From Octopus vulgaris (Eukaryota), in contig OX597837.1 of NCBI GenBank assembly GCA_951406725.2, positions 28,210,001-28,274,000 on the forward strand: a DNA stretch of 64,000 bases, read 5' to 3'. Numbering within the stretch: the first letter of the stretch is position 1; each line of letters begins with the position of its first letter. Shown here in pieces: positions 1,024 through 42,432 of this stretch. The notes under the pieces are model-generated. The model had not been told where the DNA came from. It ran no database searches and saw only the letters and a list, made by a program, of their open reading frames with translations. The translations under genes and the position numbers were made by a program.

Positions 1024-3475
1024 GAGGCGGTACCATGGCCAATGAGGTATACTCGAGGCGTGGTTATTGCTAGTTGAAAATTATTATTATTATTATTATT
1101 GAAAATTTTATTTTTCTCTACTCGTTTTCCATTTCGGAAATAGTTTTAAACGTTGGAGATAATTCTAAAAAAAAATAAGAAAAAAAATGCACATTTTATA
1201 AATTTCCCATATTTTAGTTTTTACAATACACAACCTTTTCAATTTGACTTTCCGTTCGGAAATTTTGTCAGAAGCACGTTTTAAAAATATTTTCTCAAAA
1301 GTATATTTTCAGGTTTCTATAAATGATGAACATGAACACAAATACACAAATATATATATAATACGTTTTATTTTTAAATATTTTTCTTCTTCTTACTCTT
1401 ACCAAACTTCCTTACTTCTAAGTATTTTTTTTTTTTTTGAAACGCTTTTCAAGCAGTTTCTCAAAAACTACTACTCGCAACTGATAGAAATAAAATATAG
1501 CTACCAATGAAGTAGGATTGTATTCTAACTTAATCAACGTTGGAATGGTCACTGTGGAACGCTGTTAGTATGTTTCTTGCTGTTTTGTTTGACCCATTTG
1601 CCCACCTCATTTGACAAGGTGATTAACTATGTTTTGTTTTTTGCGTATCATAATCATTTTAGACATCTGTTTTAATTAAAACAACAGGGGCTCAGTGTAA
1701 CATCACTGTTCAGTCTCGTATTTATGTAGTTTTGCTTTTGGTGATATTACCAGGTTACGTAAACACACACACACACACACACACATACACACACGATGTG
1801 CATTCCAGAAGTATATAAAGATCTTTTTAGTGAAGGTGAGGGTGGCGAGCTGGCAGAATCGTTAGCACGCCGGGCGAAATGCGTAGCCGTATTTCGTCTG
1901 CCGCTACGTTCTTTTAGGTGTTTTCGCTCAATAAACACTCACAACGCCCGGTCTGGGAATCGAAACCGCAATCCTACGACCGTGAGTCCGCTGCCCTAAC
2001 CACTGGTCATTGCGCCTCCACAATTCTTATATACGGCAGGAAAATTGATTAACGTCACTTCTTCAGGGTTTTTACATTCTGGGTTCAAATTCGGCCAAGG
2101 TCTACTTTGCTTTTCATCTTTTCAGGGTCGATAAAATAACTGCCAGTTGAGCACTGGGATCGATGTATTGGACTATAATTGACTTAATCCCTTTGTCTGT
2201 CCTTGTTTGTTCTCTCTGTGTTTAGCCCCTTGTGGGTAGTAAAGAAATAGGTATTTCGTCTGTCGTTACGTTCTGAGTTCAAATTCCGCCGAGGTCGACT
2301 TTCCCTTTCATCCTTTCGGGGTAGATAAATTAAGTACCAGTTACGCACTGGGGTCGATGTAATCGACTTAATCCCTTTGTCTGTCCTTGTTTGTCGCCTC
2401 TATATTTGGCCCCTTGTGGGTAGTAAAGAAATAATTATAGGCGTAGGAGTGGCTGTGTGTCAGTGTCAGTGTTTCGATCGTCTTCACGTTCCGAGTTCAA
2501 ATTCCGCTGAGGTCGACTTTGCTTTTCATTCTTTCGGGGTTGATAAAATAAGTACCAGTCGCGAACCGGGGGTCGACGTCATCGACGTTTGCGCTTCTCC
2601 ACCTCAAATTTCAGGCCTTGTACCTAGAGGAGAAAGAATCATTATTAGTGTTCCTACTTATCTTGTTTTTTATTATAACGACGAAGAGAGTACAAATGGC
2701 GGCGCTGCCGTTGATGATGACATTGATGAATATTCCGATCACGATGACGGTGATGATGACGACAGTGATGAAGCTGCCAACTGCAATTTACGTTAGTTTG
2801 TTAGTTACCAGGAAGAAGGAATTGGATATGGAGATGCAAAGTTTGCCTGAGAGCCTGCATCTGTATACTACCATCTCGGCCGCCATATTTGTACGTCTTT
2901 TGGATGGCTGCCAACAGTGATCCTGTCGAGTTACTTAATGTACCACGAATACATTAGCTTTCTGCCTGTCATTCAAAATCAACCGGTAGCACTTCATCAA
3001 TCTCTGTTCAACTATTAAAACACAGAACTCAATCCTAATAAAGAAAATCCATAGCTTGCACCATCATTCTAACATTCGAGCATTCTGGTATTTTGAATAT
3101 ATTCTTATATTCTGGCGTTTGTTTTCATTTTTCTCCACCCCCCAGGTGTGATGTTATAAATTTAAAACGGAATGTTATTCACAGCTACTCAGTGCATTTC
3201 TTTCTGTCTATTTCCTTTGTTTATTTTGTGTGTCAAAGTGTGAGAGAGAGAGAAAGAGAGTGTGTTTGTGGAGGGTTTTTTTACTGAGTTGTTTACGCCA
3301 TGAGGAATGTTAAAACACACAGACTTATATACATGCATATATGCCGGAGTTTTAGTGGTAAATCAAACTGATCAGTCATAGTACATATATATATATAATA
3401 AAATATTAGGGAATAAATCCAAACTTACAGGGAAAAATCAGATTTAGGATTGAATCCAATTTTATAGTAAAATAT

Positions 3476-3704
3476 TATATTATATTAAATTAGAGATAAA
3501 ACCACTATTAGGCAAATCATACAATGAAAAACTTAAGCCAATACATAAGATTAATTAATTTATATTATTTTAAATATATATCAAAATTATCTTTTTTTAA
3601 TAATTTTGATATATATTTAAAATAATATAAATTAATTAATCTTATGTATTGGCTTGAGTTTTTCATTGTATGGTTTGCCTAATAGTGGTTTTATCTCTAA
3701 TTTA

Positions 3705-3714
<10 letters not shown>
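3476..3714. repeat. Long AT-rich inverted repeat (115-bp arms, 9-nt spacer)
   Basis: 3476-3590 versus 3600-3714, two mismatches seen; a related single arm at about 42372-42440. Confidence 0.9.
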
Positions 3715-14399: not shown

Positions 14400-15982
14400 A
14401 TATAGATACCAACTTGCAGTCGCTCTGATCAACCTCTGGAGAAATTCTTTAGACTCAGGTTATATACCGAAACAGCTCCTATCCCACCTGTCATCCCGGT
14501 TTTCAAACAGGGAAACAGATCCCTCGCAGTTAACTATCTCCCAATCTCACTCACCTCCCACATCATTAAAGTGTTTGAAAGAGTGGTAACATCAAGGATA
14601 GCTGACTTCCTGGAGACCCGCAAACTCCTAAATGCAAATCAGCATGGCTTTCGCTGTGGCAGGGACTGTCTAACATAGTTCTTAGACCACATTGAAAATA
14701 TACTTAAAGCCTTGGGAACAGGTTCGAACTCTGATGTCATATATCTTGACTTCAGTAAAGCGTTCGTCAGGGTTGACAATATCTTACTCTCAAAATTGGC
14801 AAATGTTGAAATCCGTGGAAAACTTCTACACTGGATTAAGTATTTCCTGGCGAATGGAACACAACATGTTGTGGTCGATGGAGTCCACTCAAGCCCAGGA
14901 AAAATCACCAGTGGTGTCCCTCAGGGGACTGTCTTGGCCCGCTTCTCTTTATAATTTACATAAATGACCTTTCCAGCATCGTAAATCACTGCAAAGTGAA
15001 AATATTTGCTGATAACACTAATCTCCAGCAAATCATTAATGAAGAAGACCGAACTCAACTCAAGTCTGATCTATATACTGTGAGTCAATGGGCAGACAAA
15101 ACAAAATGCAACTTGAACGAGGGAAAATTTGAGCTGATGCATTTTGGAAGAAAGTCTATACTAAAACAGCCATACTCTCTTCCTTCAGGAGAACTGCTCA
15201 CAGCATCTAACAATATCAGAGACCTGGATGTAATTGTAGAAAACAATCTCAGTTGGAGTGCCCACATCAAGAAGGTCGATATAGCTCGTAGGATGAGCTC
15301 CTGGATCTTAAGAAGCTTCCGGTCCAGAGAATAAGGTGTCATCATTTCGCTTTTCTCCCCCTTTGTACAGCCACACCTCGAATACTGCTTCCTCATGTGG
15401 TCTCCCCATACAAAACAAAACATCTCGAGGATTTAATCACCCCAGAGGGCACTCACTAAACTAATTGAAGGTATGACTGATCTCGATTACTGGGACCGCC
15501 TTAGAGCCTTGAAACTCTACTCTCTCCAGCGTCGCCGTGAACGGTACATCATTTGTACGATTTGGAGAATATACCGCCAACTTTGCCCAAACGACCTGAA
15601 CATTAGTTTCAAGGTTCATGTAAGGCTGGGACCACGAGCCACACGTCCCTGCCCAATTCAGGATCACAACATATAGGTACACTGCGACATAATTTCTTTT
15701 CCTCAACAGGTCCTGCACTGTTTAACATTGTCCCGAAAGAGATCAAAGAGGAAAAGATCCCATCACCATTAAACGGAGTCTGGACAGATTTCTTCAAGGA
15801 ATACAGGATAAGCCACCCATACCTCACTCAACAACTCACTCAACAAGAACTCACTACTTGAATGGACCATAAACAAAACTTGACTTAAGCAGGATTTAGA
15901 TAATTCTATCAGGTGGCGCTATTAAATTAGATATGACCTGGACCAATCTTTGGTCGAAATATATCTAAGTTTATCTAAGTTT
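14396..15982 (+). mobile_element. 5'-truncated, decayed non-LTR retrotransposon (CR1/L2-group) ORF2 reverse transcriptase and 3' end
   Basis: RT motifs across frameshifts: PISLTSHIIKVFERVV, QHGFRCGRDC, DVIYLDFSKAF, SGVPQGTVL, IYINDL, KIFADN (degenerate YADD), RDLDVIVENNLSWSAHI, LKLYSLQRRRERY; stops and frameshifts present; 3' stem-loop gaccaatctttggtc and (ATCTAAGTTT)2 tail; begins immediately after a (TA)n run. Confidence 0.9.
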
Positions 15983-32594: not shown

Positions 32595-33080
32595 CATATA
32601 GGTAAAATATAATTGTCACTAAACGCGACTAAGGGAGTCAAGACACGTACATTGCTCGAAATAAGAGCTAAAATGCTCTAATGCTGTAGAAAAGGCACAT
32701 AGATGTATACATATATGCTCACATGGGCTACAATCGCCCAAAATACCGACTCTAGAACTTCTTAGACTGAACGTTTAGTTTCGGCTATTTCTATAGCCTC
32801 CTCAGAAAGGACCGCTCGTTCAGCAGATTACACACACAGATACATAGTATTTATCTTCGATTTGTTGCAGCCATAGTGGAGCACCACCTTGAGCAATTTT
32901 AGTCGGTCTAATCTACCCCAGTACTTATTCTATCATCTCTTTTGTCGAACCGCAATGTTATGGTAACGCAAGCACACCAACACTTGGGCAAGTGTTTTCT
33001 ACTATAGTCTCGGGCCAACCAAAGCCTTGAGTGGATTTGATAGACGGAAGCTGAAAGGAGACCGTTATATATATACTTTC

Positions 33081-33485
33081 AATATGTGACCGCGTGTGTA
33101 TCGTTGGCGATTTTCTTTCTCCGTCTTCCCTTCCATGGACTTTTCCTTTTTCTATGTTTCTGACGAAGAGCTTCGCTCGAAACGTTAAGTCCTCCTTCTT
33201 TTTTCCCTTACTGAGCGTCCAATAACACTATACTTGTCCCAAGTCCTCGCGTTGTTGTGTTTTCTCTTTGTTCATGTTTGGATTACATTCAAAATGTGAC
33301 CGCGTGTATACCGTTGGCGATTTTTTTCCTCCGTCTTCCTTTCTTTGGATCTTTCCTTTTCCTATGTTTCTGACGAAGAGCTCCGCTCGAAACGTTAAAC
33401 CTTCCCTTTTCCCTTCCTTCATGAGTGTCCAATAACACTATATTTGTTCCACGTCCTCGCGTTGTTGTGTTTTCTCTTTGGATTA

Positions 33486-33490
<5 letters not shown>
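33081..33490 (+). repeat. Tandem dimer of an about 210-bp unit, each copy with a minimal hammerhead motif (retrozyme/Penelope pLTR-like)
   Basis: Units start aatatgtgaccgcgtg (33081) and aaaatgtgaccgcgtg (33291); guuuCUGACGA-A-GAGC-uyc-GCUC-GAAAC-GUU-aa at 33160-33186 and 33370-33396; followed by (TA)n. Confidence 0.7.
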
Positions 33491-33520
<30 letters not shown>

Positions 33521-33760
33521 GTGCGTGTGTGTGTATCTTTGTGTATGTGTATGTCCCACAACACCGATTGACAACCAGAGTTGGTGTGTGCGTGTATATG
33601 ATCCCGTAGCTAAGCGGTTCGGCAAAAGAGACCGAAAGAATAAGTACCAGGCTTAACGAAAATGAGTATTGGGGTCGATTCCTTTGGCTAAAAGTTCTTC
33701 AAGGCGGCGCTCCAGCATCGTTGCAATTCAATGATTCTAACAAGTAAAATATAAAAGATT

Positions 33761-33914
33761 ACCGTTAGCCACTGCACACATTTTTTTTCTTTCTGTATAA
33801 GAGCGTAGGCTCGAAACGTAAAAGACTTTTTCTATTCCTGAGCGTTACACTAATACATCTGTTTGTTTTGCACACCACCTGTCCTCGTCTTTTGTTTTTT
33901 TCGTAAACTCTCCC

Positions 33915-33915
<1 letters not shown>
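33761..33915 (+). mobile_element. Second copy of the 4043-4242 unit with a degenerate hammerhead core
   Basis: Shares cgttagc.., aagagcgtaggctcgaaacgtaaaagactt, ctattcctgagcg, ccacctg..ctcgtcttttgttt and ends in (TA)n. Confidence 0.55.
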
Positions 33916-33937
<22 letters not shown>

Positions 33938-33945
<8 letters not shown>

Positions 33946-34348
33946 AGTGAATGAAATAAATGGAGTTGAACGAAGATTGTACAGAATACCTTTTATTACA
34001 TTCTACACATGTTTCGAAGGCCACAAATTTCCAAATTCTGTTTAAATAAGGGTACCATATTGCGGCTTTCTCTTCAGGAAAAAAACAGGAATTCCGTTGA
34101 CAGGACAAAACAAAACAGAGGCACAGCGATTCGAACGAAGATGCTCCTTAGGAGCCCATGGCTGAACTGTTTATCAATTGATAAACAGTTCAGCCTCCTG
34201 TTTTTTTCCTGAAGAGAAAGCCGCAATATGGTACCCTTATTTAAACAGAATTTGGAAATTTGTGGCCTTCGAAACATGTGTAGAATGTAATAAAAGGTAT
34301 TCTGTACAATCTTCGTTCAACTCCATTTATTTCATTCACTAATAATAT
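33938..34348. repeat. Long inverted repeat (153-bp arms) with an internal 36-bp perfect palindrome
   Basis: 33938-34090 is the reverse complement of 34196-34348; 34160-34195 GGCTGAACTGTTTATCAATTGATAAACAGTTCAGCC is a perfect palindrome; the ORF track shows identical N-termini on opposite strands. Confidence 0.95.
34200..34300 (+). ncRNA. Type I hammerhead motif; an identical copy lies on the minus strand at about 33986-34086
   Basis: CUGAAGA 34209-15; stem II GAAAGCCGCAA/UUGUGGCCUUC; GAAAC 34271-75; AUGU loop; GUA 34280-82; stem I uuc/gaa. Same architecture as the 42025 motif. Confidence 0.6.
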
Positions 34349-34494
34349 TAAACTTCAATTATCCGCTCCAACGCACGGTTGCAACACCAAATGGTCTTAT
34401 CTCCAACCGTGCTGTTTCCCGCTGTGATTTTTGCTACCCAGGTATCGGTTAAACCTTTGAATAATCTATTACAAGAAAATTCATCTTTCTATTT

Positions 34495-34543
<49 letters not shown>

Positions 34544-34698
34544 TTATATGTTATTCGACTTTTTCTATCCACGTCTTTCTTTTTAATCCATAGCTCTATC
34601 AGCTTCGTGTTTCCTTGTTCCAAAAAGATATGTGTTTTGTGCACCACCTGTCTTCGTCTTTTGTTGTTTTTTTTTGTAAACTTTCCCCATATATATAT

Positions 34699-39409: not shown

Positions 39410-39780
39410 CGATGTACGTAAGTACGTACGTATGTATGTAAAACTGGACTCAAGAGTCATCTTCATAGTCATAAAACGAGACAGATGAGTGACAACCTGG
39501 CCACAGGTGGTGGTGTAACACACCATACTAATCATATCTGTCGGGCATGTGGAAGAGAGTGTAATTCGGCAGGAGGACTTAAACGACATGCAAAGGTACA
39601 TGCAAAGCCCAGTTACAACTACAGCCGGCTATTACCAGTAAATGTTTAAGTTGCCAATTCTGTACAAGACATTGTAGATCTTTAGCTGGGCTAAAAAGTC
39701 ACATTCGATCACAGCACCAGTAACAGTTAAGCTTCGTGCAATGGCCATACTCGATAACGAGGGGGCAGCCATAATAATGG
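39410..39780 (+). mobile_element. 3' end of an RTE-like LINE ORF2 encoding three tandem C2H2 zinc fingers (decayed)
   Basis: Own translation: ..CKTGLKSHLHSHK..(in frame)..HICRACGRECNSAGGLKRHAKVH..(frameshift)..SCQFCTRHCRSLAGLKSHIRSQHQ* (TAA 39721-39723), then a short 3' UTR atggccatactcgataacgagggggcagcc and (ATA)n. Not in the ORF track. Confidence 0.7.
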
Positions 39781-41205: not shown

Positions 41206-41771
41206 ATACTGTTATTGTTTCAAATTCATTCCATTTATCTTTTAACTTTTGATCCTATTTTTCGATTGGCTATCTTAACTTTTGAAAGGAAGCCAGTACG
41301 GGTTTGTACCGGCTCAAAAAAGAAATACTCACACATACACAATGCATATTTTTAAATCCTTTATTTGTTTCTCAATGAATTGCGACTATGCTGGAGCACC
41401 ACCTGGAAAGGTTTCGATCGAACGGATTGCCCTAGTACTTAAGTTTACCTGTTCTACCGTGCTCTTTTGCCGAACCGCTAGCTTACGGGGACGTAAAAAA
41501 AGCATCACCGGTTGTCAATCGATTGGCAGCAAACAGAGACAATAAACTACGCACACACAAACGAGCACGAACACGCGCACACACACACGATATTTTATAA
41601 TTGTGGTTCTTATAGTAGTGCTTAATGTTTCACATGATTGGTGGTTTCTTCCACTAAAGATACAAGATATTTTGAGATGCTGAACTTTCCAGTAGTTACA
41701 ATAACATTGTTACTCTGCAAATGCATCGAATTCGGTCTTCATTTGAGGTAGTCGTCCTAACAAATACCATA

Positions 41772-41815
<44 letters not shown>

Positions 41816-42010
41816 TAGGTGAATGAATTATCCTAGTATGGACAATTCGGTTAACCGATACCCGGGTAGCAAATTCACGTCAGAAAACACGGTTGAAGCT
41901 ACATGCCAAGGGCAGAAATCACGTGTTTTCGTGTGGAAATTTGTGTGTTTTTTGTGGACTCCATGTGGACAGTCATCTAAAAGTTTTTGTTCGTCATGAT
42001 GCTGACATAG

Positions 42011-42110
42011 GTTCCTTGTCTTTCCTGATGAGAAGGCGGCATAATGCACCCTTTATTCCTTCGGAATTAAGAATATGCAGTCTTCGAAACATATGTCGAG
42101 AATAAAGGAA
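42011..42110 (+). ncRNA. Type I hammerhead ribozyme motif with long stem II
   Basis: CUGAUGA 42025-42031; stem II GAAGGC.GCAUA / UAUGC.GUCUUC; GAAA 42086-89; palindromic stem III ACAUAUGU; GUC cleavage triplet 42095-97; stem I uuuc/gaga extended by uuccuugu/auaaaggaa. Confidence 0.75.
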
Positions 42111-42171
42111 TTTTGTTAAAATCGTCGTTCGACTCCACTCTTTCATTTATATATATTGAGTCTGGTTTTGA

Positions 42172-42232
42172 AACCACCTGAAGAATGTCTCAAAGTTGTG
42201 CTGAAATAAGATATGAAACGATCGTAGTGGTT
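42172..42232 (+). ncRNA. Type I hammerhead ribozyme motif (second, different sequence)
   Basis: Perfect stem I AACCAC/GUGGUU; CUGAAGA 42178-84; stem II AUGUCU/AGAUAU; GAAA 42215-18; palindromic stem III ACGAUCGU; GUA cleavage triplet 42224-26. Confidence 0.75.
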
Positions 42233-42284
42233 ATTTATAATTGTTAAATTTCTAAATTTATATAAATTATTATGCAAATCAAAC

Positions 42285-42333
<49 letters not shown>

Positions 42334-42432
42334 CACATATGGTATTTGTTAGGGCAACTACCTCAATACATAAGTATTGGCTTAAGTCTTTCTTTGTCTG
42401 ATTTGCATAATAGTGGTTTTGTCTCTAATTTA

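Follow-up and report, generated by a model that had tools for sequence, protein, structure and literature searches.

We examined a locus in Octopus vulgaris DNA where two hammerhead ribozyme motifs lie 129 nt apart. The motifs come from two different repeat families and are likely the truncated ends of two Penelope-like retroelements (PLEs) that inserted successively at one (TA)n target and are inert where they now stand. PLE membership is probable for the family of the first motif (family A) and less sure for that of the second (family B). The locus lies in a 64,000-nt stretch of contig OX597837.1 (assembly GCA_951406725.2; hereafter the window), which is animal DNA rich in AT and dense in repeats, among them 120 tandem-repeat rows and numerous SINE-like copies. 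A preliminary description, made from the sequence alone, had read the locus as a single (TA)n-bounded unit that could excise and circularize an RNA.

Two hammerhead motifs on one strand

The features of the locus, together with a second copy of family A elsewhere in the window, are as follows.

41784–41813, no strand: (TA)15 run, left target microsatellite (tandem-repeat scan)
41814–41953, minus: inverted 3' extension of family A (the tail, ~140 nt), matching the tail of a relative at 34350–34500
41954–42155, plus: 5'-truncated forward copy of family A, stopping at the family's short 3' end
42021–42101, plus: hammerhead 1, type I; core 42025–42097, one G·A mismatch in the 12-pair stem II, a palindromic stem III and cleavage expected after 42097
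42101–42106, plus: AAUAAA, a possible polyadenylation signal just 3' of the hammerhead 1 cut site, also present in the window relative
42148–42155, no strand: (TA)4, parting the two ribozyme modules; either what is left of the target or family A's AT-rich end
42156–42284, plus: part of another repeat family (B) that is rarer, multi-copy in the sequencing runs at far lower summed depth
42172–42232, plus: hammerhead 2, type I; core 42178–42226, with A-U at the closing pair 10.1-11.1, a palindromic stem III and cleavage expected after 42226
42285–42327, no strand: (AT)21 run, right microsatellite (tandem-repeat scan)
33941–34500, no strand: second family-A insertion, with perfect 141-nt inverted arms, a tail on one arm only and (TA)n at both ends
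41822–41830 (minus), 42141–42148, 33950–33958 (minus) and 34479–34485: UUCAU sites

Both motifs are type I hammerheads with the core CUGANGA, GAAA and UH and three helices, of which helix I is open. Hammerhead 1 has CUGAUGA at 42025–42031, GAAA at 42086–42089, the palindrome ACAUAUGU at 42089–42096 and the triplet GUC, with 4 pairs in stem I, 11 of 12 in stem II and a 30-nt loop II; in the predicted fold, its stem I can be extended via an internal loop to 42012/42110. Hammerhead 2 has CUGAAGA at 42178–42184, the palindrome ACGAUCGU at 42218–42225 and the triplet GUA, with 6 pairs each in stems I and II. The pair G10.1-C11.1, a consensus trait that is not absolute, is present in hammerhead 1 and is A-U in hammerhead 2, and neither motif has an extra nucleotide before 10.1. 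Within a monomer, each 8-nt palindrome gives a stem III of 2 pairs with a 4-nt loop; in a homodimer it gives 8 pairs.

The positions, strand and 129-nt cut-to-cut spacing given in the preliminary description were borne out, as was its statement that the two sets of stems are unrelated apart from the palindromic design of stem III. A strict descriptor, composed after the motifs had been seen and too strict for a diverged relative at 34209, had exactly two matches on the two strands of the window and none in 300 block-wise dinucleotide shuffles. Outside the core, the local alignment score of the two motifs was matched by 1312 of 2000 shuffles. The Rfam check that the description had proposed gave no support, with no match of the hammerhead models to either motif at E up to 10. 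The same search also missed textbook minimal hammerheads at 33160 and 33370 in the window and is thus insensitive for PLE-type motifs. The block as a whole folds no better than shuffles (z 0.07).

Contigs of four sequencing runs (X1, X3, X5 and X11) were aligned to the locus at 80% likeness. Runs from four organisms share part of 41590–42432, and none has half of its words among the 20 of 24 rows listed. We classed the 22 listed variants within 42019–42102 and 42196–42212, scoring each, unphased, against the partner base of the window copy and adding two distal stem I positions. None falls in the core, 12 fall in loops and 10 in stems. Eight of the 10 stem variants turn a G·U or a mismatch into a Watson–Crick pair, one gives a G·U and one breaks a pair, against an expectation of 12 Watson–Crick outcomes in 204 possible substitutions. 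The majority variant at 42212, for example, changes a G·U of hammerhead 2 into G-C. The window copy carries G·A and C·A mismatches and G·U pairs at sites where the family variants pair Watson–Crick. Because the listed stem variants mostly restore pairing and no listed variant falls in the core, both motifs are real, and the window copy has departed a little from family forms with better pairing. The two ribozymes, called apparently intact in the preliminary description, are so in their cores and not in their stems.

Loop II of hammerhead 1 (42050–42058) is complementary over 9 nt to 42100–42108, which includes the AAUAAA, and more weakly so in the relative. Such pairing could be a pseudoknot or a switch that masks the polyadenylation signal. 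Scored as a pseudoknot between loop II and the AAUAAAGG stretch, it proved weak: 61 and 171 of 2000 shuffles did equally well, and distal stem I is in competition with it. We set aside as chance a reading frame (41827–42105) that passes through hammerhead 1; it spans the inversion point and has no Pfam match.

Family A at the locus and elsewhere in the window

The stretch 41814–42155 is a complete family-A insertion, in which an inverted 3' tail is joined to a truncated forward copy bearing hammerhead 1. Segment 41814–41953 matches 34350–34500 in the opposite orientation relative to the ribozyme, with a score reached by none of 2000 shuffles, and 42018–42148 is identical to 33941–34150 in 92 of 136 columns. 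Contigs have loose ends and joints at 41953/41954 and at 42155, and the short arm of the relative runs into (TA)n at the place matching (TA)4.

The relative itself runs from (TA)n through an inverted arm and a forward arm that matches it exactly over 141 nt to an extension and a further (TA)n. Hammerhead 1 is present in each arm (34209–34282 on the plus strand, ~34077–34004 on the minus strand), the extension measures 150 nt before it meets (TA)n, and hammerhead 2 is absent from the whole insertion. The plus-strand hammerhead of the relative keeps 15 of 17 pairs, with two pairs altered on both sides. Its core letters are identical at 11 of 13 places, the two differences falling at the free positions N7 and H17, and its stem III variant still pairs 8 of 8, two G·U among them. 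The insertion looks young, and a further hairpin lies at its arm junction (~34161–34197).

Both family-A insertions terminate in TA runs. The TA borders that the preliminary description gave its unit (41784–41813 and 42285–42327) are in place, and what lies between them is not one unit: 41814–41953 is inverted, and (TA)4 parts the two modules. The window holds 119 runs of at least six TA/AT units, and 47 of the 72 gaps longer than 40 nt measure 600 nt or less; with TA runs this abundant and most gaps this short, the borders of the block say little. A UUCAU motif lies ~5–20 nt before the TA run at the short and the long family-A ends of both copies, and possibly marks two reverse-transcription start sites.

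Unrelated hammerhead families are also stacked, with TA runs between them, at 33074–34690, and such stacking is ordinary within the window. Here, 33074–33480 is a tandem of two 210-nt units that ends in (TA)n, each unit containing one minimal hammerhead (33160 and 33370 for the cores) whose stem III is reduced to C-G. It could be a PLE pLTR tandem or a small non-LTR retrozyme and, unlike the pair described here, could homodimerize in cis. A decayed minimal-hammerhead-like motif lies near 33792–33820 within 33755–33925, and 34540–34690 is a piece with a similar 3' end; both stretches run out into (TA)n, one on either side of the family-A palindrome.

The junction between families A and B

Family B has no second copy in the window and was followed through the contigs, for which the listing covers 15 joints out of 19, 24 loose ends out of 310 and 32 pieces out of 6716. 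The 42196 variant of hammerhead 2 occurs in 14, 7 and 13 contigs of X1, X3 and X5. The mean summed depth of the six hammerhead-1 bins relative to that of the four hammerhead-2 bins is 41.6 (X1), 54.7 (X3), 48.5 (X5) and 614.7 (X11); summed depth does not count copies and runs too high where a family is variable. X11 may be an RNA run, and its depth is not taken as a measure of expression.

An opposite-strand joint between 41953 and 42155 recurs in three of the four runs (X1, X3 and X5), so other family-A copies continue from 42155 into the tail and not into hammerhead 2. Twelve of the 15 listed joints lead from the tail region 41845–41925 to a later place at 41930–42129, in single contigs at a depth of 8–58. 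Such scattered tail/body joints are what a large number of separate insertions, truncated at different points, should produce. Of the 15 joints listed of 19, none touches a place beyond 42155, and none of the 32 pieces listed of 6716 bridges the A/B junction. The only listed piece over hammerhead 2 (X11, record 16) matches 42167–42257, and the 29 letters upstream of the match are unlike; it could be no more than a truncated copy.

Clearly, most family-A copies lack hammerhead 2. Most family-B copies likely lack hammerhead 1, to judge from that one contig and the layout. The preliminary description had proposed looking for genome-wide copies in which the two ribozymes co-occur with stem covariation. 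The covariation is there, with 8 of 10 stem variants Watson–Crick; for co-occurrence, no bridging piece is among the 32 listed of 6716. It had also named separate elements adjacent only here as the outcome that would count against it, and this is largely what we see: family A stands without hammerhead 2 in the window, and its other copies leave the locus at 42155.

The two modules might still form a composite end, in which a family-A piece was fused upstream of a family-B end and then spread as a subfamily of tens to hundreds of copies. Most hammerhead-2 copies would then have hammerhead 1 upstream, and each ribozyme would pair with its own kind in a tandem transcript to give two independent cuts per unit. 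This fits the multi-copy state of hammerhead 2 in X1, X3 and X5, and a depth that holds up on approach to the junction in X3 and X5 (bins 42166–42197) and that, in the junction bin 42150–42165, is not below that over hammerhead 2. It also fits the single strand and the unusual 8-nt palindrome design that both motifs share, and the hammerheads reported in several regions of Terminons (cited in PMC7761336). However, no bridging piece or joint is among those listed, and the informative contig differs upstream. Family A, moreover, stops at its normal short end beside (TA)4, and the upstream inverted tail would need to be carried along too. We regard a composite end as unlikely and favor two successive insertions.

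Several further observations concern the flanks. Positions 42371–42432 resemble, at ~91%, each arm of an element at 3385–3710 that is palindromic and tailed on one side, and 42268–42285 is an inverted copy, at 17 of 18 letters, of part of that element (1 of 2000 shuffles). One X5 contig departs from the hammerhead-2 flank at 42271 with 13 letters that occur in the window only in the same element. Family B may, on these likenesses, continue into the family of element 3385–3710. We also considered whether the 3' flank of hammerhead 2 is homologous to the palindromic element at 3598–3655, and rejected this as not significant (232 of 2000 shuffles). An inverted pair of ~40 nt (41743–41783 and 42330–42367) faces inward across the TA-bounded block; it could represent two ends of yet another family, or the target flank copied as a fold-back.

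Probable assignment to Penelope-like elements

No open reading frame for a Penelope reverse transcriptase (RT) or a GIY-YIG domain was found beside either motif, so the PLE label rests on the RNA motif and the insertion layout. A Pfam scan of 34 frames yielded neither domain, and no family passed the cut-off in the 29 frames around the two loci. The sole match above the cut-off among all 34 frames is an unrelated RVT_1 fragment (14840–15331, E 1.2e-08), which from its motifs we take to be LINE-like and to have no link to the hammerhead block. A single C2H2 zinc-finger-like stretch (39422–39646, E 0.003, below the Pfam cut-off) could be a small exon or chance.

PLE insertions are marked by an inverted 5'-truncated copy, a one-sided tail and (TA)n targets (PMC8557442). 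The inverted layout with a tail at one end is seen for family A, in both insertions, and is not established for family B. PLEs also tend to insert in or beside PLE copies (PMC6765202).

We consider it quite improbable that the two modules are separate neighbors of another kind, namely hammerhead-bearing SINE-like or other non-autonomous retroposons placed by some other (TA)n-targeting enzyme. The empty search of 34 frames would suit such retroposons, as would a tail exceeding the described length and a hammerhead 1 stem II longer than the 7–8 pairs of PLE motifs (PMC4209133). Yet the literature treats the combination of inverted arms and a one-sided tail as a peculiarity of PLEs (PMC8557442, PMC11167929), the flanks of hammerhead 1 match the U-rich/AU-rich PLE-hammerhead consensus (PMC4209133 supplement), and neither a tRNA gene nor a tRNA head is present in the window. 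Penelope-type ends remain our reading of both modules.

Dimers, monomers and the proposed 129-nt circle

The active monomer fold is predicted to make up 0.00084 of the ensemble for hammerhead 1 and 0.00012 for hammerhead 2. Homodimers fare far differently in the model. Their stem III duplexes form all 8 pairs, at −7.0 (hammerhead 1) and −10.0 kcal/mol (hammerhead 2), and their stem I has 4 and 6 pairs, respectively. These predictions support the view, taken in the preliminary description, that the motifs are Penelope-type hammerheads whose palindromic stem III would let them act as dimers.

The heterodimer is a different matter. Its stem III would have 5 of 8 pairs at +0.9 kcal/mol, and its cross stem I a single contiguous pair per side. 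With so little pairing between them, the neighbors are predicted to be unable to switch each other on.

If 42226 were joined to 42098, the core of ribozyme 2 would be followed by the stem I strand from ribozyme 1, with one contiguous pair and no hammerhead rebuilt. The 129-nt circle has a predicted energy of −11.3 kcal/mol, less stable than the −16.3 ± 3.2 kcal/mol of 200 shuffles, and 197 of 200 shuffles are as good as or better than the linear form. A 42226-to-42098 joint is absent from those listed for the contigs, an absence that carries no weight for or against circles. Since ligation rebuilds no ribozyme, the circle could not, on these models, serve as a self-processing retrozyme unit.

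Hammerhead cleavage leaves 5'-OH and cyclic phosphate ends, and both cores at this locus are complete and lie on the same strand, 129 nt apart. The preliminary description had drawn a heterologous pair that could excise a 129-nt RNA for an RtcB-type ligase to circularize, possibly as a two-ribozyme, retrozyme-like element. That element, whose transcript would lose 42098–42226 to be ligated into a circle and reverse-transcribed, is very improbable: the heterodimer is predicted to be impossible, the tandem-repeat scan found no tandem repeat at the locus, the circle holds no ribozyme and folds worse than its shuffles, and 129 nt falls short of the 170–400 nt of metazoan retrozymes (PMC7229834).

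Discussion

Our preferred reading is that two PLE ends landed one after the other at one (TA)n target. Its mechanism can be sketched by analogy with the anole Poseidon element, for which two internal RT start sites give rise to the one-sided tail in vitro (Frangieh et al. 2024, PMC11167929). On this analogy, the protein of the element at our locus would have nicked both strands of an AT-rich target, and two cDNAs would have been primed at two RNA start sites, ~55 nt and ~200 nt past the ribozyme cut. Both cDNAs would have stopped early and been joined head to head, giving an inverted tail and a forward body. The family-B end with hammerhead 2 would have landed at the same spot, before or after family A.

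Each ribozyme would presumably cut only as a homodimer, two copies swapping the strands of their palindromic stem III and of stem I. The setting for this would be a tandem transcript of the parent element, possibly assisted by protein. At a locus with one copy of each, the 129-nt RNA would be released only after two separate homodimer events in trans, and it would probably be unable to propagate as a retrozyme.

As it stands, the locus is probably dead and adds two further hammerhead families of the kind described in 2014. Family A is of interest in itself: it is very abundant, its base pairs clearly covary and its stem II is unusually long. The many junctions between inverted tail and body in this family offer a clean natural test of the two-start-site, both-strand priming model of anole Poseidon. 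We see a slim chance of something more: a chimeric Penelope-type end with two orthogonal dimer-type hammerheads that spread as a unit, its tandem transcript cut twice per unit and shedding a fixed 129-nt RNA with ligatable ends. Such an end would amount to a ribozyme cassette with two keys, made by nature, and would capture how PLE ends swap ribozymes, and its spread as a unit would bear on the open question of PLE hammerhead function.

The literature searched, which comprised neither the Terminon and Lunse et al. dimer papers nor some supplements (these may describe unlike neighbors), gave no account of two unrelated hammerheads in one PLE end, and none of hammerheads in octopus PLEs. Exact-pattern scans had no match for hammerhead 1 in viral and metagenome contigs and none for hammerhead 2 in metagenome contigs. 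Ten short motifs from the window likewise had no match in the supplementary data of PMC8557442, where long sequences appear in shortened form, so that this absence carries no weight.

Among known systems, Terminons (Arkhipova et al. 2017) are elements with hammerheads in several regions (cited in PMC7761336), and with them the locus shares several PLE-like hammerheads in one stretch. In contrast, Terminons are described as giant, ORF-rich and telomere-attached, and none of this is seen at the locus.

The non-LTR retrozymes of metazoans (Cervera and de la Pena 2020, PMC7229834; Li et al. 2026, 10.64898/2026.07.22.740005) are likewise non-coding, AT-rich and PLE-related and carry type I hammerheads. 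Retrozymes, however, are tandem repeats, and their circles rebuild the ribozyme because every tandem unit carries the same one. The locus has unlike motifs, no tandem with the same hammerhead, and a poorly folding circle that would be ribozyme-free.

The inverted tailed PLE insertions of Neptune/Naiad type (Craig et al. 2021, PMC8557442) share with family A an inverted truncated copy joined to a forward copy, an extension at one end, a (TA)n target and variable junctions. The tail of family A measures ~140 nt, compared with 30–40 bp in the insertions described there. Such (TA)n targets are also recorded for two octopus Naiads (among PMC4209133, PMC8557442, PMC11167929, 10.64898/2026.07.22.740005, PMC7761336, PMC7229834, PMC6765202 and PMC13282606). 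Naiads have no hammerheads of the canonical type, which makes family A an unlikely member of that group.

The closest comparison is with the hammerheads of metazoan PLE pLTRs (described by Cervera and de la Pena 2014, PMC4209133), which include variants with a small palindromic helix III in Drosophila, rotifers, shrimp and mosquito. In that account, dual minimal hammerheads lie on opposite strands 100–700 bp apart, many families occur per genome, and stem II has 7–8 pairs. Unlike these, the present motifs have an 8-nt palindrome and no extra nucleotide before 10.1; stem II of hammerhead 1 has 12 pairs with a 30-nt loop, and hammerhead 2 has A10.1-U11.1. Shared with them are the type I topology, the CUGANGA/GAAA/UH core, a palindromic, unstable and dimer-requiring helix III and a long helix II, as well as the occurrence of several unrelated families per genome, mostly as solo motifs or inverted pairs in truncated copies.
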